Shown here: positions 7,748 to 42,773 of the stretch, piece by piece
Layout: each line of letters begins with the position of its first letter
How positions within the stretch are numbered: position 1 is the stretch's first letter
Sequence record: PP400787
DNA length: 64,000 nucleotides
Strand: one strand, 5' to 3'
Origin: Escherichia phage FL23
Program-made: the position numbers and the translations under genes
The notes under the pieces: generated by a model
Told to the model about the DNA's origin: nothing
The model's input: only the letters and a program-made list of their open reading frames with translations
Database searches by the model: none

Positions 7748-10700
7748 TTATTCAACCCATTCAAATTTAACAGTTTTATTCACTGGGTCAGGAACAATGC
7801 GAACATTACCAATTCGTAAGAAATCACGAATAGTAAGATTCCCCATTATAGCATTATCAGATGGTAAAGCACCAATATCAGATGGCTGAGGAGGGTTACC
7901 CCCATCAAATACTTGAACAAAACTTGACCAAGAGTTTTTGGTTTTCTGCCATGTACGTGTCCAACGAGTGGTACGTGCTTCTGGTGTTGTTGGATAAGTA
8001 ATCCAATCTTGGTAAAGCGAATCAAGTGTGTTACCAAACTGAGTCAGTGTACCAGGAGATTTAACTTCTTCGCCACGTTCTAAGTATGGAAGTCCAGTCA
8101 CTTCATTAGTTTTTTCAACCATTTTAAAATAACCAGGGAACTGGTTATAAGTGGCTGAATCGTTAATATCGATTGACCAGAATCCTACTGTATCAGATGT
8201 TGGTGCGCGGGTGTATAAATCAGATGTTTTAGTACCCTGAGAACGAATTCTCGAGTTAACAGTTAAACCACCGCTGTTAATTGTTGCTCCACCTTTACTA
8301 ATGATAAGCCCTTCACCAATTGTAACTTGACCGGATTGATTATTAATTGATAATGGACGTAATCCATTAAATCCACCAAACTGATCACCGGCTGCAGTGA
8401 GCATAAAATAGGTGTCATTACCAGCATTACGAATAAAGAATCCGTAATTTCCATTTATTGCTCTAAAAGCATTTGCTGATTTACTGGTAAATTCTCCATT
8501 AGCAGTAACTGAATTACCAAATGTTGCAACGCCATTCGCATTCAATGAACCAGAAGCATTTACATCTATCGGCATTACAGTACCATTGATATTAAACAAT
8601 ATCTTTCCAGCTGTATTGCGCTGAGAATAAAAGTGATGAGATGTTTCATCACCAACTTCAAATACAGTAGAACGCGTTGAATCTGGTCTGCCACTAAACT
8701 GGTTTCCCCAAACTTTGATAGTCATCGTCTGCGCTGGGTTAGTTTCAGTTTGAGGTCCTTTCTCAAAAATCAGACGAGCTGCTGTTCCAGTTTTAGAAAT
8801 AGTTAATGTATTTACCGAAACTGAACCACCAAACGTAGCAGTACTAGATGATACAAGAGGGGCACTCAGATTCGTTTGTTGGGTTAAGGTTAGTGAACCA
8901 TTAACCGTCTGTGCAATATCCCTACGAATGAACTGAGATGAATCTAGACCATCCAATAAATTACTATCTACAGCTTTTGCTTTTAACGGCAGATAATTTG
9001 CTAATACACGGTTTAATTCATATGGTGATATTGCATAGCTATTTTTCTCATATGATTCTAATGGCTGTGTTGAACCTACCGTATCATTACCAACGAACGT
9101 AATTGAACTAGATGAAGTTTTAACAAAACCTCTTATCGCAGTAGTAGCTGCCCAGGTAGGTTCACTCTGCACAATCCATTTTAAATTTTTTGGAGATACA
9201 GCAGTATTTGCTGACGTTCCAGTCACAGTTTCAGACTGAGTTGCAACTTTAATAACGCCTTCCTGTGCTTCAGTAGATTTAGTACCTAAAAGCTTTTTAG
9301 GAGTTATTAGAACATTATCCAATGTTCCTGCAGCAGCTTCAACTTGTGTAGCTACACGAAGTGTACCACGCTGTGTCTCATTTGCTTCAAGAATATTAAG
9401 GGTATAATGGTCCCAGAGAGTTCCTGATTCAACTAATCCAGATAGAGCAACAACAGAAGTACGATCAGTACTATTAAATCTGGTTTTAATTTTTAATGGT
9501 GTAGAGATACGAGTATCGTCGACGCCTGCGTCGAATTCAACTTGCGTAGCAATTTCAGCTATACCACTTAAACTTTCAGTTGCTCTACGGTCATTTAAAG
9601 TTTTAGGAGTGACTGCACGAGTATAGTCAGTTCCTGTATTAACTTCACTTTGCGTAGCAATTTCAATTAAACCAATTCTTCCATCAGTTGATGTCTTTTT
9701 ATGTAACGTTTCTGGCGTTACAACAGCATTTGCCCATCCTTGCTGACTTTGTCCAGCAATTACTTCACTTTCAACTGCTAAAATTACTGCACCCTGTTGA
9801 GTAGGCGTAGCTTTATACTGATCCAAAGCTTTAGGTGAAACAACTAAATTATTAGTGTTTTTATTATAAACATTCGTACCATTTAATTCACGGCTAGAAG
9901 CTGGAGTAGCTCCTGCAGTAGATACAAAAGTTACAATACCAGATAATGATTCAGAACCTTGACGAGCTTGAAGCTTTTTAGGAGTGATGATTGTAGTATC
10001 ATCAGTACCTGCATTAGTTTCTTGCTGCGTAGCAATTTCAGCAACACCTCTACGAGTTTCTGTAGCAGTTCTTTCATTCAGCTTTTTAGGAGTAATGATA
10101 AGGTCATCTGCAAAAGAGAATGTGGTGTTCTGATTCACTTGAGCAGTAGTTGCTATTCTTGCAATACCTCTACGAGTTTCAGTAGCAGTACGATTAGCTA
10201 ACGTTTCTGGAGTAATTGCTAATTCTTTTTGTGGAGAATTTTCTAAATCGACATTAGCTTGAGCTTGTGTAGCTAAAGCAATTACGCCTAATCTTGCTCT
10301 AGTAGAATCATTTAAAGAATCTACTCTTTCTACAGTTGGAACGTTTTGCTGTACAACCCAGTATTTTCCATCAGAATCTTCTATATAAGCAAGTTGTAAA
10401 ACTGGAACATAATTAGTTTCGCCATTAAAAACTAATTCTTGGACTGTAACCCATTTAGTTTCAGGCGGATATTCTGAACGTTTTGGGAATTGCAGCAATT
10501 GAACTGAAGAAGCAATTTTATCTTCATCAGCAGCTTTGATTTTAACTGTTTGTCCTTTTCTCATGTAATTCATGGAAATTTTAACAGTATCACCAACAGA
10601 AATATCAGTCGGAAGCTGAAGCTCAATTGTCTGAGCTGTTCCGTTATTCGCACCAAATACCATAACTTCTTCATTTGGACGAATATTAGAATTAGTTGTT

Positions 10701-14964: not shown

Positions 14965-14994
14965 GTTTACATACCACAAGGACTGTGGTACTAT
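14965..14994 (+). promoter_or_regulatory. early promoter with spacer stem-loop (GTTTACA-N17-TACTAT)
   Basis: gtttaca taccacaaggactgtgg tactat; ccaca/tgtgg hairpin in spacer. Confidence 0.5.
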
Positions 14995-15037
14995 ACAACT
15001 ATCGGCAATACTGCTGATGATTAAAGAGGAAAACAAT

Positions 15038-15265
15038 ATGGCTAAAGTTGATATTGACATCGTTGATTTTGAATATATTGAAGAAATTATTCGTAATCGT
15101 TATCCTGAACTTAGTATCACAAGCGTACAAGATTCTAAGTTTTGGAGTATTCAAATCGTTATTGAAGGTCCTCTTGAAGACCTCACCCGCTTTATGGCTA
15201 ATGAATATTGTGATGGCATGGATTCTGAAGACGCAGAATTTTACATGGGATTGATTGAACAATAA
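15038..15265 (+). CDS. hypothetical early protein (frd.3-like, 75 aa)
   Basis: ATG 15038 preceded by AAAGAGGA; ORF track start 14912 rejected. Confidence 0.55.
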
Positions 15266-28236: not shown

Positions 28237-28290
28237 GTTTACAAGTCCCTCGTGTTGTGTTATAGTAGTCTTACTGACATAACATGAGGA
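28237..28290 (+). repeat. 54-bp early-promoter/leader cassette, copy A (identical to 42394-42447)
   Basis: gtttacaagtccctcgtgttgtgttatagtagtcttactgacataacatgagga; -35 GTTTACA, 17-nt spacer, -10 TATAGT, SD GAGGA. Confidence 0.8.
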
Positions 28291-28297
28291 CTTTATG

Positions 28298-28801
28298 ATG
28301 GATTTACAACTTATTACTACTGAAATGGTCGTTGAAGCATACGGTGATACTACAGATGGGATTTCTGTATTCAAAGGAAATCGTCGAGTTGGATATATCA
28401 CCGATCTTAAGAAAGATTTAGCTAAGCAAGTCAAGCGGAAAACGACCATTAAAGAATATCGAAATCGTCGTCTTGAGCAAGCCCGTGATATGCTTCCTGA
28501 TGCGGTTGAAGAGATGAAAGTCTTTTTAGAAAATCAACTCGCTAAGTATGAGTGCGAAGTATTCATTAATCAGACTCAACCCAATGTTCATATCAATAGC
28601 TGCAAATGCTACATTATTGTTAATCCTTTGACGGGAAAGCATCGTCTTGGAATTAGTAATCCAAATCGTAGTGCATCGGATATGGCAGAAGATGTTGAGG
28701 CATGCTTTAAAATTTCTAAATCTCCAGCTGAACATCATATTTTAATTAACGGTCTTTCTCAAGACGATATTATAGAGGTTATTAAAACTTTATGCAATTA
28801 A
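28298..28801 (+). CDS. alc: Alc (blocks host transcription on cytosine-containing DNA)
   Basis: 167 aa, position between rnlA and pseT, sequence recognised. Confidence 0.75.
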   Translation: MDLQLITTEMVVEAYGDTTDGISVFKGNRRVGYITDLKKDLAKQVKRKTTIKEYRNRRLEQARDMLPDAVEEMKVFLENQLAKYECEVFINQTQPNVHINSCKCYIIVNPLTGKHRLGISNPNRSASDMAEDVEACFKISKSPAEHHILINGLSQDDIIEVIKTLCN

Positions 28802-31561: not shown

Positions 31562-31600
31562 GTTTACTTTACGGTAGAGTTGTGATATTATAGCTCTACC
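31562..31600 (+). promoter_or_regulatory. early promoter with stem-loop (GTTTACT-N17-TATTAT; ggtagag/ctctacc)
   Basis: agtttactttacggtagagttgtgatattatagctctacc. Confidence 0.5.
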
Positions 31601-31621
31601 AAAACAAACGAGGAAATTGAA

Positions 31622-32149
31622 ATGAGCGAATGGTTTGAAGAAGATAAGGTTTATCGCTTTAAAACTGGGTATAAAGATATTTTTAATGAAACTTGCGGGG
31701 CTAATAAACGAATTGCCCAGTTTATTGGGGAAAATTCATTTAAAGTAAAAATAGATCCTGCGAAAAATGTTATTAGCATTAAACGCGAAATTGATGACTG
31801 CTGGTATAAAGCTGTTGATGTAATGGGCGAATCTTATAAAGTTAGCCCGTTATTTTCAATTGCTTATATGTTAGAATATTCTTTTTTCGAAGAAGTTCAA
31901 AAAGATGATTCTGTCAGTAAATTTGAAATTAAAGCTGATAAAGAAATTAAGTGGAAAGTAGTAGGTATTACTGGTTGTATGTTTTATATCTATGCTCAAA
32001 CTGATACGAAGGAAGAAGCTAAAAAGAAAGCTCTAGAATATCTTGAAGAGTATGAAGAAGGTCCGGTAATGATTACTCAAGATGCTGAATTAGTTTCTGT
32101 CAAATTAGTTAAAAACGTTGAAAGTAAGGAGCTGGGATCAACATGCTAA
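31622..32149 (+). CDS. hypothetical protein (175 aa)
   Basis: ORF with GAGGA SD. Confidence 0.5.
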   Translation: MSEWFEEDKVYRFKTGYKDIFNETCGANKRIAQFIGENSFKVKIDPAKNVISIKREIDDCWYKAVDVMGESYKVSPLFSIAYMLEYSFFEEVQKDDSVSKFEIKADKEIKWKVVGITGCMFYIYAQTDTKEEAKKKALEYLEEYEEGPVMITQDAELVSVKLVKNVESKELGSTC

Positions 32150-35144: not shown

Positions 35145-35174
35145 GTTTACAGTACGGTTCCTTTGTGATAGTAT
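35145..35174 (+). promoter_or_regulatory. early promoter (GTTTACA-N17-TAGTAT)
   Basis: gtttaca gtacggttcctttgtga tagtat. Confidence 0.5.
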
Positions 35175-35201
35175 TATCTTACACAAACAAAGGAGAATAA
35201 A

Positions 35202-35534
35202 ATGAAAACGATTAATCTGAACGCTGCAGTTAAAACTAAATGCTTCAATGGTAAATATAATGAAACTATGTGGTTCTTAATGGCAGTTGAAGGTGATATT
35301 ATTGAAGTAGAAACAACAGAAGGTATGGGAACAGATTTCACCTTTACAATTCAAGTTCATAATTTCTTTACTGGTTGGATTTATGAATTGAATAAAGTAA
35401 TCGTTGGAAAAATTGAACAAAATGAATTAGGTGAATGGTATTATGTTACAGCTCGCCAACGTGCCGAACGCTTAATTGAGAAGATGAAAAAAGTTGGTAA
35501 ACTTGACATGCAGCATTGGAAAGTAGTAAAATAA
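35202..35534 (+). CDS. hypothetical protein (110 aa)
   Basis: ORF with AGGAGA SD. Confidence 0.5.
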   Translation: MKTINLNAAVKTKCFNGKYNETMWFLMAVEGDIIEVETTEGMGTDFTFTIQVHNFFTGWIYELNKVIVGKIEQNELGEWYYVTARQRAERLIEKMKKVGKLDMQHWKVVK

Positions 35535-35536
35535 TT

Positions 35537-35575
35537 GTTTACTTTTGTACAGGACATGATATTATATACCTGTAC
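35537..35575 (+). promoter_or_regulatory. early promoter with stem-loop (GTTTACT...; gtacagg/cctgtac)
   Basis: gtttacttttgtacaggacatgatattatatacctgtac. Confidence 0.5.
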
Positions 35576-35601
35576 CGCAATTAAACATCTTGGAGAATAA
35601 A

Positions 35602-35967
35602 ATGAACTACATTAACTTTGAACGTAAATATGTTTCTAATGGTATTGCAGGTTCTATTGATACCATCTGCCTTTGGAAACATCAAAATGGATCAGTATGC
35701 GAAATCGAACAGTATATGACTCCTAACTACGTTTATATGCGATTTGAAAACGGTATCACGGTTTCAATCACGATGGAAGGTTCCAACTTTAAAATCGCTC
35801 TGGATGATGATTTCCGTCAACGTGATTTAGGGACTCATCCTTGCTGGAATGGTGCTAATCGTAAACTCTTAGTTAAAACTTGGATTCGTCATATTCTGAG
35901 TAACAAAGCTAAACCTGAGCACTTGGAAGCAATCTTTGATGTAGTTCTTAACGAATTTGATATTTAA
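35602..35967 (+). CDS. hypothetical protein (121 aa)
   Basis: ATG 35602 with GGAGAA SD; ORF track TTG 35590 rejected. Confidence 0.5.
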   Translation: MNYINFERKYVSNGIAGSIDTICLWKHQNGSVCEIEQYMTPNYVYMRFENGITVSITMEGSNFKIALDDDFRQRDLGTHPCWNGANRKLLVKTWIRHILSNKAKPEHLEAIFDVVLNEFDI

Positions 35968-38247: not shown

Positions 38248-39707
38248 TTCTTAAAATTCTGAACGAAATAGCATCTATTGGTTCAACTAAGCAGAAGCAA
38301 GCAATTCTTGAAAAGAATAAAGATAATGAATTGCTTAAACGAGTATATCGTCTGACTTATTCTCGTGGGCTGCAGTATTATATCAAGAAATGGCCTAAAC
38401 CTGGTATTGCTACCCAGAGTTTTGGAATGTTGACTCTTACCGATATGCTTGACTTCATTGAATTCACATTAGCTACTCGGAAATTGACTGGAAATGCAGC
38501 AATTGAGGAATTAACTGGATATATCACCGATGGTAAAAAAGATGATGTTGAAGTTTTGCGTCGAGTGATGATGCGAGACCTTGAATGTGGTGCTTCAGTA
38601 TCTATTGCAAACAAAGTTTGGCCAGGTTTAATTCCTGAACAACCTCAAATGCTTGCAAGTTCTTATGATGAAAAAGGCATTAATAGGAATATCAAATTTC
38701 CAGCTTTTGCCCAGTTAAAAGCTGATGGAGCTCGGTGCTTTGCCGAAGTCAGAGGTGATGAATTAGATGATGTTCGTCTTTTATCACGAGCCGGTAATGA
38801 ATATCTAGGATTAGATCTTCTTAAGGAAGAATTAATCAAAATGACCGCTGAAGCTCGCCAGATTCATCCAGAAGGTGTGTTAATTGATGGCGAATTGGTA
38901 TACCATGAGCAAGTTAAAAAGGAGCCAGAAGGCCTAGATTTTCTTTTTGATGCTCATCCTGAAAACAGTAAAGTTAAAGACTTCACAGAAGTAGCTGAAT
39001 CACGTACTGCTTCTAATGGAATCGCTAATAAATCTTTAAAGGGAACCATTTCCGAAAAAGAAGCACAATGCATGAAGTTTCAGGTCTGGGATTATGTACC
39101 GTTGGTAGAAATATACGGTCTTCCTGCATTTCGTTTGAAATATGATGTACGTTTTTCTAAACTAGAACAAATGACATCTGGATATGATAAAGTAATTTTA
39201 ATTGAAAACCAGGTAGTAAATAACCTAGATGAAGCTAAGGTAATTTATAAAAAGTATATTGACCAAGGTCTTGAAGGTATTATTCTCAAAAATATCGATG
39301 GATTATGGGAAAATGCTCGTTCAAAAAATCTCTATAAATTTAAAGAAGTAATTGATGTTGATTTAAAAATTGTAGGAATTTATCCTCACCGTAAAGACCC
39401 TACTAAAGCAGGTGGATTTATTCTTGAGTCAGAGTGTGGAAAAATTAAAGTAAATGCTGGTTCAGGCTTAAAAGATAAAGCCGGTGTAAAATCACATGAA
39501 CTTGACCGTACTCGCATTATGGAAAACCAAAATTATTATATTGGAAAAATTCTAGAGTGCGAATGCAACGGTTGGTTAAAATCTGATGGCCGCACTGATT
39601 ACGTTAAATTATTTCTTCCGATTGCGATTCGTTTACGTGAAGATAAAACTAAAGCTAATACATTCGAAGATGTATTTGGTGATTTTCATGAGGTAACTGG
39701 TTTATGA
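38244..39707 (+). CDS. 30: ATP-dependent DNA ligase
   Basis: 487 aa; MILKILNEIASIGSTKQKQAILEKN; KADG adenylation motif. Confidence 0.9.
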   Translation: MILKILNEIASIGSTKQKQAILEKNKDNELLKRVYRLTYSRGLQYYIKKWPKPGIATQSFGMLTLTDMLDFIEFTLATRKLTGNAAIEELTGYITDGKKDDVEVLRRVMMRDLECGASVSIANKVWPGLIPEQPQMLASSYDEKGINRNIKFPAFAQLKADGARCFAEVRGDELDDVRLLSRAGNEYLGLDLLKEELIKMTAEARQIHPEGVLIDGELVYHEQVKKEPEGLDFLFDAHPENSKVKDFTEVAESRTASNGIANKSLKGTISEKEAQCMKFQVWDYVPLVEIYGLPAFRLKYDVRFSKLEQMTSGYDKVILIENQVVNNLDEAKVIYKKYIDQGLEGIILKNIDGLWENARSKNLYKFKEVIDVDLKIVGIYPHRKDPTKAGGFILESECGKIKVNAGSGLKDKAGVKSHELDRTRIMENQNYYIGKILECECNGWLKSDGRTDYVKLFLPIAIRLREDKTKANTFEDVFGDFHEVTGL

Positions 39708-39913: not shown

Positions 39914-39921
39914 TATAAATA
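39914..39921 (+). promoter_or_regulatory. late promoter TATAAATA for alt
   Basis: ttttataaatag, about 20 nt upstream of the alt ATG. Confidence 0.6.
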
Positions 39922-39941: not shown

Positions 39942-42032
39942 ATGATGGAACTAATTACAGAATTATTTGACGAAGATACTACTCTTCCGATTACAAACTT
40001 AAATCCAAAGAAGAAAATACCACAAATTTTTTCAGTTCATGTTGATGATGCAATTGAACAACCAGGCTTTCGTTTATGTACCTATACATCTGGAGGTGAT
40101 ACTAATCGCGATTTAAAGATGGGCGATAAAATGATGCATATTGTTCCTTTTACATTAACTGCTAAAGGTTCAATTGCCAAATTAAAAGGTCTTGGTCCAA
40201 GCCCAATTAATTATATCAATTCAGTTTTTACTGTTGCAATGCAAACAATGCGTCAGTATAAAATTGATGCCTGCATGCTTCGTATTCTTAAGTCTAAAAC
40301 CGCTGGTCAAGCTCGACAAATTCAAGTTATTGCTGATAGACTTATCCGTAGTCGTTCAGGGGGCAGATACGTCCTTCTTAAGGAACTCTGGGATTATGAT
40401 AAAAAGTACGCATATATTCTTATACATCGCAAAAATGTATCACTGGAAGACATTCCGGGAGTTCCGGAAATTAGTACCGAGCTCTTTACTAAAGTTGAAT
40501 CGAAGGTCGGTGATGTTTATATCAATAAAGATACTGGAGCTCAAGTAACTAAAAATGAGGCAATTGCAGCATCTATTGCGCAAGAAAATGATAAACGTTC
40601 TGATCAAGCTGTAATCGTTAAAGTTAAAATTTCCCGTAGAGCAATTGCACAAAGCCAGTCATTGGAATCTTCTAGATTTGAAAGTGAATTATTCCAGAAG
40701 TATGAATCTACCGCAGCTAATTTCAATAAACCTGCTACCGCTCCTTTAATTCCCGAAGCAGAAGAAATGAAGCTTGGAATTAATTCATTAGCTTCTAAAA
40801 CTAAGGCAGCAAAAATTATTGCCGAAGGAACTGCGAATGAACTTCACTATGACTATAAATTCTTTTCAAAAAGTGAGGTTGATGAAGTTTCTGAAAAAAT
40901 TAAAGATGTAATTCTTAATGCGATTAAAAATGAACCAACTACTTCAATAAAATGTTTAGAGAAATACGCAGCAGCTGTTAATCAACTCTTTGAAGAATAT
41001 AAAGATAATTGGCTTGATAAACATAATAAAACTCGTAAAGGGCAGACAGATGAAGTCTGGGGAGAAATAACTAAAAATGCCTGGAATGCAGCAAAAACTA
41101 AATTCCTCAAACGAATGATTTATAGTTTTTCTGGAATTGGTGCAGGCCCAATGATTGATATTACTATTGCCCGTGATGGTTCTAAATATACTCCATCGCA
41201 AAAGCGCGGTATTAGAGAGTATTGTGGTTCAGGATATACAGACATTAATAATCTTCTTTTAGGTCGTTACAATCCAGAACGATATGATGTAATGAGTGAA
41301 AAAGAAATTGAATCTGCTATAAATAATTTAGATTCAGCTTTTGAAAATGGTGACCGCATACCGGAAGGCATTACAGTTTATCGTGCTCAAAGTATGACTG
41401 CTCCTATATACGAAGCACTAGTTAAAAATAAAGTGTTCTATTTCAGAAATTTTGTATCTACTTCTTTAACTCCTATCATTTTTGGACGTTTTGGAATTAC
41501 ACATGCTGGTATTGGTCTTTTAGAACCAGAAGCTCGTAATGAATTAACAGTTGATAAAAATGAAGAAGGAATAACTATTAATCCAAACGAAATAAGAGCG
41601 TATAAAGAAAATCCTGAATACGTTAAAGTTCAAATAGGATGGGCAATTGATGGAGCTCATAAAGTTAATGTTGTATATCCAGGAAGTCTCGGAATAGCAA
41701 CAGAAGCTGAAGTTATTCTACCGCGCGGACTGATGGTCAAAGTTAATAAAATAACTGATGCTTCTAATAATGACGGAACAACATCTAACAATACAAAACT
41801 CATTCAAGCTGAAGTTATGACCACAGAAGAACTCACCGAATCGGTAATCTATGACGGAGACCATTTAATGGAAACTGGTGAATTGGTTACAATGACAGGT
41901 GATATAGAAGATAGAGTTGACTTTGCATCATTTGTTTCATCAAATGTTAAACAGAAAGTAGAATCATCTCTTGGAATTATTGCGTCTTGCATAGATATTA
42001 CAAACATGCCTTACAAGTTCGTTCAAGGATAA
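39942..42032 (+). CDS. alt: Alt, virion-packaged ADP-ribosyltransferase
   Basis: 696 aa; N-terminal MELITELFD capsid-targeting-like region; ART R-S-E motifs (YRAQ, FVSTSL); late promoter. Confidence 0.8.
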   Translation: MMELITELFDEDTTLPITNLNPKKKIPQIFSVHVDDAIEQPGFRLCTYTSGGDTNRDLKMGDKMMHIVPFTLTAKGSIAKLKGLGPSPINYINSVFTVAMQTMRQYKIDACMLRILKSKTAGQARQIQVIADRLIRSRSGGRYVLLKELWDYDKKYAYILIHRKNVSLEDIPGVPEISTELFTKVESKVGDVYINKDTGAQVTKNEAIAASIAQENDKRSDQAVIVKVKISRRAIAQSQSLESSRFESELFQKYESTAANFNKPATAPLIPEAEEMKLGINSLASKTKAAKIIAEGTANELHYDYKFFSKSEVDEVSEKIKDVILNAIKNEPTTSIKCLEKYAAAVNQLFEEYKDNWLDKHNKTRKGQTDEVWGEITKNAWNAAKTKFLKRMIYSFSGIGAGPMIDITIARDGSKYTPSQKRGIREYCGSGYTDINNLLLGRYNPERYDVMSEKEIESAINNLDSAFENGDRIPEGITVYRAQSMTAPIYEALVKNKVFYFRNFVSTSLTPIIFGRFGITHAGIGLLEPEARNELTVDKNEEGITINPNEIRAYKENPEYVKVQIGWAIDGAHKVNVVYPGSLGIATEAEVILPRGLMVKVNKITDASNNDGTTSNNTKLIQAEVMTTEELTESVIYDGDHLMETGELVTMTGDIEDRVDFASFVSSNVKQKVESSLGIIASCIDITNMPYKFVQG

Positions 42033-42035
42033 ATC

Positions 42036-42422
42036 ATGGAACTTATTACAGAATTATTTGACGGCGCTTCGGCGCCGGTTGTTAACTTAAATCCTAAGCA
42101 TAAAATACCACAAATTTTTGCTATCCAAGCCGGCGAAGAAAGCGTGCTTCCTGGATTTAGATTTTGTACATATACCTCTGGTGGTGATACAAATAAAAAC
42201 GTTAAGCCAGGCGATAAAATGATGCATATCGTAATGATAGGCGTCAACGAGAAATTATCGCTGGTTAAGCTTAGAAACTTGGGTGGAAATCCAATTGGCG
42301 TCATTAATGCGGTTTTTGATACTGCTCTTCAAACAATGAAGCAGTATAAAATTGACGCATGCCTATTCCGCGTACTAAAAAGTTCAAAATGTAGTTTACA
42401 AGTCCCTCGTGTTGTGTTATAG
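42036..42422 (+). CDS. truncated Alt N-terminal paralog (128 aa)
   Basis: MELITELFDG...LPGFRFCTYTSGGDTN...MMHIV...KQYKIDAC parallels Alt residues 1-125; ORF ends inside repeat copy B. Confidence 0.55.
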   Translation: MELITELFDGASAPVVNLNPKHKIPQIFAIQAGEESVLPGFRFCTYTSGGDTNKNVKPGDKMMHIVMIGVNEKLSLVKLRNLGGNPIGVINAVFDTALQTMKQYKIDACLFRVLKSSKCSLQVPRVVL

Positions 42423-42447
42423 TAGTCTTACTGACATAACATGAGGA
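42394..42447 (+). repeat. 54-bp early-promoter/leader cassette, copy B (identical to 28237-28290)
   Basis: Exact 54/54 match found by eye; flanks differ. Confidence 0.8.
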
Positions 42448-42454
42448 ACACAAA

Positions 42455-42745
42455 ATGAAATCTTCTTTGCGCTTTTTAGGTCAAGAACTTGTAGTTGAAG
42501 GCGTTATTCCTGCTGATAATGCTTTTAACGAAGCAGTTTATGATGAATTTATCAAAATTTTCGGAACAGATAAAAAGTTTGGAATTTTTCCTTCTAAAAA
42601 TTTTTCAAAGCCAGAACAGACTGAAAGTATTTTTCAGGGTGTAGTAACAGGTAAATTTGAGTCAGAAGCTCCTGTAAAAATTGAAGTTTATATTGAAGAC
42701 GGTTTAGTTGCTTCAGTTGCTGCTTTCATTTCATTCCGTAAATAA
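42455..42745 (+). CDS. hypothetical protein (96 aa) expressed from cassette copy B
   Basis: ATG 8 nt after the cassette SD. Confidence 0.5.
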   Translation: MKSSLRFLGQELVVEGVIPADNAFNEAVYDEFIKIFGTDKKFGIFPSKNFSKPEQTESIFQGVVTGKFESEAPVKIEVYIEDGLVASVAAFISFRK

Positions 42746-42751
42746 AAATAT

Positions 42752-42769
42752 GGGGACCGAAAGGTCCCC
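42752..42769. terminator. bidirectional terminator hairpin (GAAA loop) between convergent ORF and gene 54
   Basis: ggggacc-gaaa-ggtcccc with A/T runs on both sides. Confidence 0.7.
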
Positions 42770-42773
42770 ATTG

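Follow-up and report, generated by a model that had tools for sequence, protein, structure and literature searches.

Introduction

In bacteriophage T4, a reference system for phage gene regulation, the literature that we reached lists hairpins sequestering the Shine-Dalgarno sequence (SD) for four genes only, all of them gated by a late promoter. These genes, e, soc, 49 and I-TevI, have an SD-sequestering hairpin with an internal late promoter, and the late RNA alone can be translated (PMC3014915). Here we describe a 54-bp early promoter/leader cassette that occurs twice in a 64,000-nucleotide stretch of DNA from Escherichia phage FL23, a Tequatrovirus (sequence record PP400787; the whole stretch is called the window below), once in front of alc and once in front of the gene known in T4 as alt.-3. 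In this cassette, the spacer of an early promoter is predicted to pair with the SD of the gene downstream. Neither alc nor alt.-3 is in the T4 review's list of inhibitory translation-start structures (PMC3014915), and older print literature may hold an earlier description. The main text of a T4 omics paper does not mention alt.-3, to which CmdTAC escape mutations map (PMC11618068).

Two other described systems are close to the cassette. The first is the T4 early promoter, which has GTTTAC as its -35 element and its -10 element at -12 to -7 relative to the start (PMC1524935), and of which an extended consensus is known (PMC2988021). The second is the promoter early stem-loop (PeSL) cassette of T4-type phages, described by Arbiol et al. 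2010 (PMC2839356) and extended to the T4/PST pair by Comeau et al. 2014 (PMC4122927); PeSL subclasses are defined by five stem-loop positions, overlap with the -10 among them (PMC2839356). Homologous recombination in T4 needs only about 50 bp of homology, according to Singer et al. 1982 as cited in PMC2839356. An annotation made from the letters of the window alone (the original prediction) had taken the two copies for a mobile regulatory cassette of the PeSL kind, recently copied or converted, and for potential recombination points.

Results

Two identical promoter/leader units precede alc and alt.-3

The 54-mer GTTTACAAGTCCCTCGTGTTGTGTTATAGTAGTCTTACTGACATAACATGAGGA is present on the + strand at 28237-28290 and at 42394-42447, and the exact match of these two places in front of alc and the open reading frame (ORF) at 42455 is as originally predicted. 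A search of the window for further copies found no third match at ≤3 mismatches, and dinucleotide-preserving shuffles gave no match to the 54-mer (0/100). The GTTTACA, 17-nt spacer, TATAGT and GAGGA that had been read in the sequence were all found in both copies. The flanks of the two copies are unrelated on the left and on the right. The view that two genes have a promoter and a 5' untranslated region in common, and that this is not a segmental duplication, is upheld. Early-promoter-like sites elsewhere in the window have only 20-37 of 54 positions in common when compared pairwise, so a 54/54 match is a clear outlier. Copy A occupies the intergenic space between rnlA and alc; its 5' edge lies 3 nt past the rnlA stop codon and its 3' edge 4-7 nt before the alc ATG. 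The 5' edge of copy B is the stop codon of a second alt paralog, and 7 nt separate its 3' edge from the ATG of ORF 42455-42745, identified as alt.-3 by the T4 annotation and Pfam PF17602.

28237-28290, + strand: cassette copy A (alc locus), with promoter, hairpin, leader and SD; exact 54-mer, covariance model 88 bits
42394-42447, + strand: cassette copy B (alt.-3 locus), identical to copy A; exact 54-mer, covariance model 88 bits
27109-28233, + strand: rnlA, the upstream gene, whose transcripts would enter copy A; annotation
28298-28801, + strand: alc, inhibitor of host transcription, alternative ATG at 28295; Pfam PF17527, E 2e-91
42455-42745, + strand: alt.-3 (DUF5498), 96 aa, function unknown; Pfam PF17602 and T4 annotation

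A promoter scan found TTTACA, a 17-nt spacer and TGT-TATAGT in both copies, with 10/12 consensus matches and the TG present. All the parts of a T4-type early promoter are there, namely a -35 GTTTAC(A/T), a 17-bp spacer, TGn and a -10 of the form TAnnnT. Upstream, where a UP-like region would be A/T-rich at -40 to -60, aaaaagttcaaaatgta adjoins the alt.-3 copy, and the A/T run of the alc copy is placed further up, beyond about -55. The UP-element region is outside the repeat and differs between the two loci. Labels given to the cassette in database records vary (promoter, ribosome-binding site or terminator); the record of phage Lutter has a promoter annotated at the cassette.

28237-28243 (copy B 42394-42400), + strand: -35 element GTTTACA; promoter scan
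28258-28266 (copy B 42415-42423), + strand: extended -10 TGT-TATAGT, within the 5' arm of the hairpin; promoter scan and fold
28273 (copy B 42430), + strand: predicted transcription start A37, 7 nt after the -10; placed from T4 early-promoter geometry

The promoter spacer is predicted to pair with the SD

The main feature of the cassette, a hairpin in which the promoter spacer would pair with the SD, was missed in the original prediction. The cassette as a whole is an imperfect palindrome, and its RNA folds into a hairpin that has 19 pairs inside the 54-mer and, at alc, 22 in all. Its arms are cassette positions 10-31 and 36-54, with C13 bulged, A26 and U27 unpaired and GUCU as the loop. The minimum free energy (MFE) is -24.4 kcal/mol for copy A (z -5.3) and -23.0 kcal/mol for copy B (z -4.7), and none of 200 shuffles folded as stably.

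28246-28267 (copy B 42403-42424), + strand: 5' arm of the hairpin (cassette 10-31), the promoter spacer with the anti-SD CCCTC plus the -10; MFE and centroid structures
28272-28290, + strand: 3' arm of the hairpin (cassette 36-54), leader plus SD GAGGA at 28286-28290; MFE and centroid structures
42429-42447, + strand: 3' arm of the hairpin in copy B, SD at 42443-42447; fold

RNA beginning at the predicted start of the cassette promoter folds with only about -2 kcal/mol, at a z of about 0. For GAGGA, the predicted chance of being wholly unpaired is 1e-7 to 1e-8 if the RNA reads through from upstream versus 0.03-0.08 if it starts at the cassette's own promoter; as own-promoter RNA does not contain the 5' arm, its SD is predicted to be far more accessible. 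The SD is sequestered in all 20 natural haplotypes folded, with MFE values from -17 to -28 kcal/mol. One natural haplotype, T11-T15-A16 (alt.-3 copy L082, also in T6 at L011 31506 and in GBLB0003 at L010 31127), has Watson-Crick or wobble pairing where there were a bulge-side mismatch and wobbles, and forms a stronger hairpin (-25.7 vs -23.0 kcal/mol). In GBLB0003, T15 occurs together with A50, which makes a true compensatory pair but weakens the SD, GAGGA becoming AAGGA.

A hairpin at this place might also act on the RNA from upstream, as an attenuator or terminator, as an RNase III site, or as a 3' stabiliser of the rnlA and alt mRNAs. The SA20RB record has a WebGeSTer terminator over the alt.-3 copy, and a stem of about 20 bp, such as this one, is a plausible RNase III substrate. 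A PeSL stem-loop lowered expression of a downstream lacZ in RB49 (PMC2839356). Against such a role, neither copy is followed by the U-tract that, after a G+C-rich stem, makes an intrinsic terminator, and a terminator scan across each copy and up to 340 bp upstream returned no site. Moreover, the 3' arm holds the SD in every lineage and the helix between SD and anti-SD is the best kept, which a terminator or stabiliser would not need. We consider a role confined to upstream RNA unlikely, and it is compatible with SD gating rather than exclusive of it.

A covariance model built from the cassette found a single further match in the rest of the window, a weak one before gene 30.8 (35145, E about 2). 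The early promoter of gene 30.8 (window 35145-35204) has a weaker hairpin of like kind, UUCCUUUGUG with CAAAGGAG (-12.1 kcal/mol, z -2.1), and a weak hairpin is present at the equivalent place in T6 and PP01 (L011 22542-22591 and L012 7225-7274). This hints that SD gating is used at further early genes. Three other GTTTAC promoters, at 31562-31624, 35537-35604 and 14965-15040, have inverted repeats over the spacer or the -10 that stop short of the SD (GGTAGAG/CTCTACC, GTACAGG/CCTGTAC and CCACA/TGTGG), and these look like ordinary PeSL-type stem-loops. In the SA20RB record, overlaps of promoter and stem-loop at other GTTTAC promoters are annotated as promoter plus terminator.

The hairpin upstream of alc in other T4-like lineages

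Within Tequatrovirus, 97.9% of the pair cells hold standard pairs, and there is one compensatory double change. In other genera the region upstream of alc differs in sequence and has the same layout: GTTTACA, a spacer arm complementary to the phage's own SD region, and the -10 in the loop. This layout is kept in the five genera listed here and in further lineages.

Dhakavirus alc hairpin: 5' arm TCTCCTCAT, 3' arm ATGAGGAGA
Gelderlandvirus alc hairpin: 5' arm ATCTCCGTTT, 3' arm AAACGGAGAT
Karamvirus alc hairpin (z -6.4): 5' arm TCTCCATTTGGTTGTGT, 3' arm ACACTAACCAAATGGAGA
Jiaodavirus alc hairpin: 5' arm ATCCTCGTCAG, 3' arm CTGATGAGGAT
Kanagawavirus alc hairpin: 5' arm AATCCCATTTTGTTGTGT, 3' arm ACACTAACAAAATGGGGATT

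The 42 IMG/VR contigs that encode Alc have 37 distinct upstream regions and supplied more arm pairs of this sort. A MAFFT alignment of 32 alc upstream regions was set aside for pair counts because the 3' arms were out of register, and a swap test and the covariance model were used instead. The swap test, which is alignment-free, compares duplex energies between spacer and leader in 16 lineage representatives. The mean was -15.5 kcal/mol for a spacer with its own leader versus -9.1 with the leaders of other lineages; the own leader ranked first in 11/16 lineages, and 0/100,000 permutations reached the observed total. At fixed offsets from GTTTAC, most stem positions show 2-4 Watson-Crick or wobble pair types, with partners 4-14 nt before the ATG.

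With the covariance model, the element was found directly upstream of alc at 22 loci outside Tequatrovirus. In the resulting alignment, which includes two reverse-strand self-hits and two short partial hits that are noise and not support, 89% of the cells hold standard pairs vs 71% after shuffling, 16/19 pairs are changed on both sides vs 9.3, and the covariation score is 0.30 vs 0.10, with slid controls at 0.02-0.06. None of 500 shuffles reached the observed values. The helix between SD and anti-SD is the best conserved and most strongly covarying, being 95% paired with compensatory changes in 9/10 pairs. Taken together, these comparisons lead us to infer that an anti-SD hairpin is ancestral upstream of alc across the T4-like phages and has been maintained with compensatory changes.

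Covariation within an inverted repeat cannot by itself separate pairing in DNA from pairing in RNA, and the reverse strand scores weakly with the covariance model, so the palindrome could in principle act in DNA, as a cruciform or as a promoter-regulating site bound by a dimeric protein, RNA playing no part. However, G-U pairs are common and are exchanged for Watson-Crick pairs and back, as expected of RNA but not of DNA, and one of the arms is always the SD region. A purely DNA-level function seems to us extremely improbable.

In the lineage of Shigella phage SP18 (L036) and the IMG/VR contigs L049 and L050, alc is tandemly duplicated (an alcb fragment plus alca). Upstream of alc this lineage lacks the GTTTAC hairpin promoter and has instead a terminator-like hairpin rich in G+C, GGGGTGTACAAGCCCC, with a T-run after it, which may be an alternative way to insulate alc from upstream transcription.

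Two copies at two loci throughout Tequatrovirus

A blastn search with the 54-mer against 50,697 phage records gave 997 places in 499 records, that is, two per genome and never three; the sole record with one copy is a partial genome. Every copy inspected sits at the alc or the alt.-3 locus. T4 itself has both, its alc copy being identical to that of the window and its alt.-3 copy differing by 1 base (53/54). As T4 and 499 independent records show the same two-copy layout, an assembly artefact, including the collapse that the original prediction named as a risk, is excluded. The presence of two copies throughout the genus dates the duplication to the ancestor of Tequatrovirus. Pattern scans of public metagenomes and IMG/VR added a few copies only.

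The haplotype of the window is the commonest at both loci; with its flanks it occurs exactly in at least 122/499 genomes at alc and at least 141/499 at alt.-3, counts that are marginal for each locus and not joint for genomes in which both copies are identical. At least one exact copy of the window 54-mer is present in 257 genomes. The perfect identity of the two copies in the window thus needs no recent event. Of the earlier claim that exact identity implies recent copying or conversion, the recent copying does not stand, since the duplication is old and genus-wide; conversion is backed by the shared polymorphisms described below.

These data also bear on the idea that the copies are a mobile PeSL cassette, products of recent transposition-like copying that serve as active recombination points for modular shuffling and mini-circles. 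The composition of the cassette, with its stem-loop over the -10, fits the PeSL description (PMC2839356), T4-type phages recombine at such motifs with less than 50 bp of homology needed (PMC2839356; PMC4122927), and variants have been exchanged between the copies. But 499 genomes have exactly two copies at fixed loci and none elsewhere, which lends no support to the mobility that had been proposed. Gene order (rnlA-alc and alt2-alt.-3) is constant at the borders in all 16 genomes read, and no difference in gene content was seen there. The truncation of alt2 is an internal deletion whose endpoint is not at the cassette. If the copies crossed over with each other, a 14-kb segment containing genes 30 and 31, both essential in T4, would be lost or doubled, and no such genome was seen; no rearranged genome was found among the 499, and their part as recombination points is theoretical only. 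Mobility of this kind is, in our judgment, quite unlikely.

Variation of the two copies

The two copies were compared in 14 genomes, a sample picked for divergence and hence biased. No fixed locus-specific difference separates the copies in these genomes. The mean number of differences is 2.4 between copies within a genome, 2.3 (alc) and 2.9 (alt.-3) between orthologs, and 2.8 between paralogs of different genomes. There are 11 and 12 variants at the two loci, 7 of which coincide in both position and base change (hypergeometric P = 5e-7; 1e-4 with transitions only). A linked haplotype, A29+A32, is common at alt.-3 and is found also at alc in PP01 and UFV10, where it makes the two copies identical; PP01 and UFV10 are the least similar pair across the region, with 94.3% identity. 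Several genomes have 4-5 differences between their copies, which speaks against continuous homogenisation. The shared polymorphisms indicate occasional gene conversion between the copies.

Alternatively, there was no copying between the loci, and two independent promoters have been held identical by selection for one optimum. T4 early promoters do have an extended consensus (PMC2988021), and the variable sites may be the sole ones free to change. Nonetheless, the other early promoters match at only 20-37/54 positions, and linked haplotypes such as A29+A32 occur at both loci. The diversity of the cassette (0.043-0.055) equals that of its flanks and is not below that of flanking coding sequence, so the similarity of the copies is not simply strong conservation. 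In addition, three other lineages have a different promoter at alt.-3. Independent selection is thus a very unlikely source of the identity.

Origin of the alt.-3 copy

The alt.-3 gene has a different early promoter, and no SD-sequestering hairpin ahead of it, in three lineages outside Tequatrovirus, namely RB69, Dhakavirus (MX01 and similar contigs) and contigs of a probably Gaprivervirus-like lineage. The alt.-3 promoters of RB69 and MX01 fold with z from 0 to -1.2, and the spacer/leader duplexes of the two lineages other than RB69 are about -8 kcal/mol. The alt.-3 promoters outside Tequatrovirus match the T4 cassette only at its left end, GTTTACAA(G), and its right end, AACATGAGGA. In the simplest history, a resident alt.-3 promoter would have had about 35 of its internal nucleotides replaced by the alc module in the ancestor of Tequatrovirus. 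The direction from alc to alt.-3 is suggested because the hairpin is present at alc and absent at alt.-3 outside Tequatrovirus. The most likely route would be a short-patch ectopic gene conversion, bounded by GTTTACAA on the left and AACATGAGGA on the right, motifs that all early promoter/leader units have in common. If the shared -35 and leader/SD motifs acted as homologous borders, the repeat would start exactly at the -35 and end exactly at the SD, as it does.

The alc and alt.-3 promoters of RB69 (L029, L030) differ in their spacers and have a near-identical 17-nt leader, ATCAACAACAYGAGGA. This likeness may come from partial homogenisation of the two loci in Mosigvirus or from a common A/C-rich early leader.

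Read-through sources and neighbouring features

A scan found no terminator-like site between rnlA and alc or ahead of copy B. Upstream of copy B are alt and the remnant of a second alt paralog. Because Alt is packaged as a head protein and a late-promoter motif is present at 39914, the alt genes are taken as late; late read-through into alt.-3 would then come from the alt genes.

39914-39921, + strand: late-promoter motif TATAAATA upstream of alt; motif
39942-42032, + strand: alt; annotation
42036-42422, + strand: truncated second alt paralog, whose ORF runs 29 nt into copy B; compare 39942-40144
42750-42771, no strand assigned: bidirectional terminator-like hairpin between alt.-3 and the convergent gene 54; perfect 9-bp G+C-rich stem with T-runs on both strands

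What the ORF at 42036-42422 retains of a second alt (ADP-ribosyltransferase) paralog is its N-terminal part; an internal deletion shifts the frame so that the stop codon lies inside the -10 of copy B. This paralog is full length (685 aa) in T6, PP01, KIT03, P8, SA20RB, UFV10, ZJUN4 and GBLB0003, and in the full-length forms the G of the TAG is also the first base of the cassette. Three alt paralogs are present in MX01.

Three minor observations concern repeats in the window. A 28-nt stretch of alc (28390-28417) is 89% identical to a stretch of gene 30, DNA ligase (38516-38543; TGGATATATCACCGAT..AA.AAAGAT), probably by chance. Paralogy of Alt.-3 and gp30.5, hinted at by a repeat, was rejected (BLASTP E = 0.055). 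Four diverged 68-nt direct repeats with 63-74% identity and irregular spacing lie at 9240-10216, presumably a protein motif in a structural gene.

Discussion

We propose that the cassette is an early-expression module, an early promoter placed inside an anti-SD hairpin, which is ancestral at alc and replaced the alt.-3 promoter once. We give this reading, in which start site, gating and conversion mechanism are our deductions, a probability of roughly 60%. RNA starting at the cassette promoter (predicted position 37) would carry the 3' arm only, its SD would be far more accessible, and alc or alt.-3 would be translated. RNA arriving from upstream, from rnlA and preceding genes in the case of alc and from the late alt genes in the case of alt.-3, would carry both arms, and with the SD locked in the stem the gene would be silent; such read-through RNA may also be attenuated, or processed by RNase III, at the hairpin. 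With the SD hidden in read-through RNA but not in early-promoter RNA, protein output would be tied to the immediate-early period. Because promoter, insulator and ribosome site form one unit of about 54 bp with common borders, short-patch conversion could move this timing programme from gene to gene.

Several observations weigh against this proposal. A fully open SD is predicted in only 3-8% of own-promoter RNA. The hairpin at alc is absent in 4/16 lineages, the RB69-like one included, and in a fifth (L058/L072) it ends short of the SD, so that SD gating is dispensable. Variation within Tequatrovirus is too low for a test of structure, 100/500 shuffles equalling the observed value, and the pairing figures of the covariance model come from an alignment fitted to the structure itself. 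As to the copying, sequence identity gives no direction, and early promoter/leader units align at 37-43/54 positions with gaps. The shared variants could in part come from a small set of freely varying sites, and copies within a genome are not significantly more alike than pairs from different genomes (permutation p = 0.077), which is why we regard conversion as occasional and not continuous.

A broader claim would be that the cassette is a portable 'transcript-origin gate' of T4-like phages, which permits translation only from own-promoter RNA, has moved from alc to alt.-3, and has weaker versions, such as that of 30.8, suggesting a wider undescribed layer of early control. We hold this only tentatively, at somewhat less than an even chance.

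If the gate is real, Alc and Alt.-3, the latter being the CmdTAC escape locus, would be limited to the first minutes of infection even though read-through transcription occurs later, and PeSL-type stem-loops would gain a translational role. A conversion tract of about 35-54 bp would have transplanted a regulatory programme, which has since been kept similar in about 500 genomes. The unit could also be used as a compact, insulated expression part, and the proposal is readily testable with T4 genetics.

How does the cassette compare with the systems already described? It has the properties of a T4 early promoter, with the GTTTAC -35, the 17-bp spacer, the TGn extended -10, TAnnnT and orientation toward early genes. 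It differs from the ordinary early promoters of the window in that these mostly have no anti-SD in the spacer and share only 20-37/54 positions.

The relation of the two copies resembles concerted evolution by ectopic gene conversion: the paralogs show no fixed differences and hold polymorphisms and haplotypes in common, and the distance between paralogs is about that between orthologs. The differences are that the tract is only 54 bp, the lower limit for homologous recombination in T4, and that the within-genome excess of similarity is weak.

The PeSL assignment of the original prediction, made without sight of the stem-loop, stands for composition: the cassette has a stop codon directly before it, a sigma70-type early promoter, a stem-loop over the -10, and an SD and ATG at its 3' end. 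PeSL sequences, whose promoter form in the T4/PST pair is TTTACW-N17-TAYWAT, are likewise repeated and able to recombine. In contrast, PeSLs occur in many dispersed copies in hyperplastic regions and at the borders of indels and replacements, whereas the cassette has two copies per genome in 499 genomes, fixed at two loci, with no link to indels or gene swaps in the genomes read. Its stem-loop has no U-tract and always includes the SD, and the PeSL papers view the stem-loop as a terminator or attenuator, and as a linker in recombination, with no mention of translation, ribosome binding or gene conversion (PMC2839356, PMC4122927). The interpretation in the original prediction is, on the whole, partly supported.

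The closest likeness in regulation is to e, soc, 49 and I-TevI, in which the SD or AUG lies in a helix of the long RNA and a promoter in the 5' strand of that helix gives a short RNA that has lost this strand and is translatable. In the cassette, too, the SD is in a helix of the long RNA, and the -10 (positions 25-30) is in the 5' arm, with the predicted start at 37. The internal promoter of those genes is late, and that of the cassette is of the early sigma70 type; the cassette is therefore a variant of this type and not a member of it. For e, soc, 49 and I-TevI it is the early read-through RNA that is silent, whereas the cassette would be their mirror image, with the RNA that reads through from upstream, or later, being the silent one.

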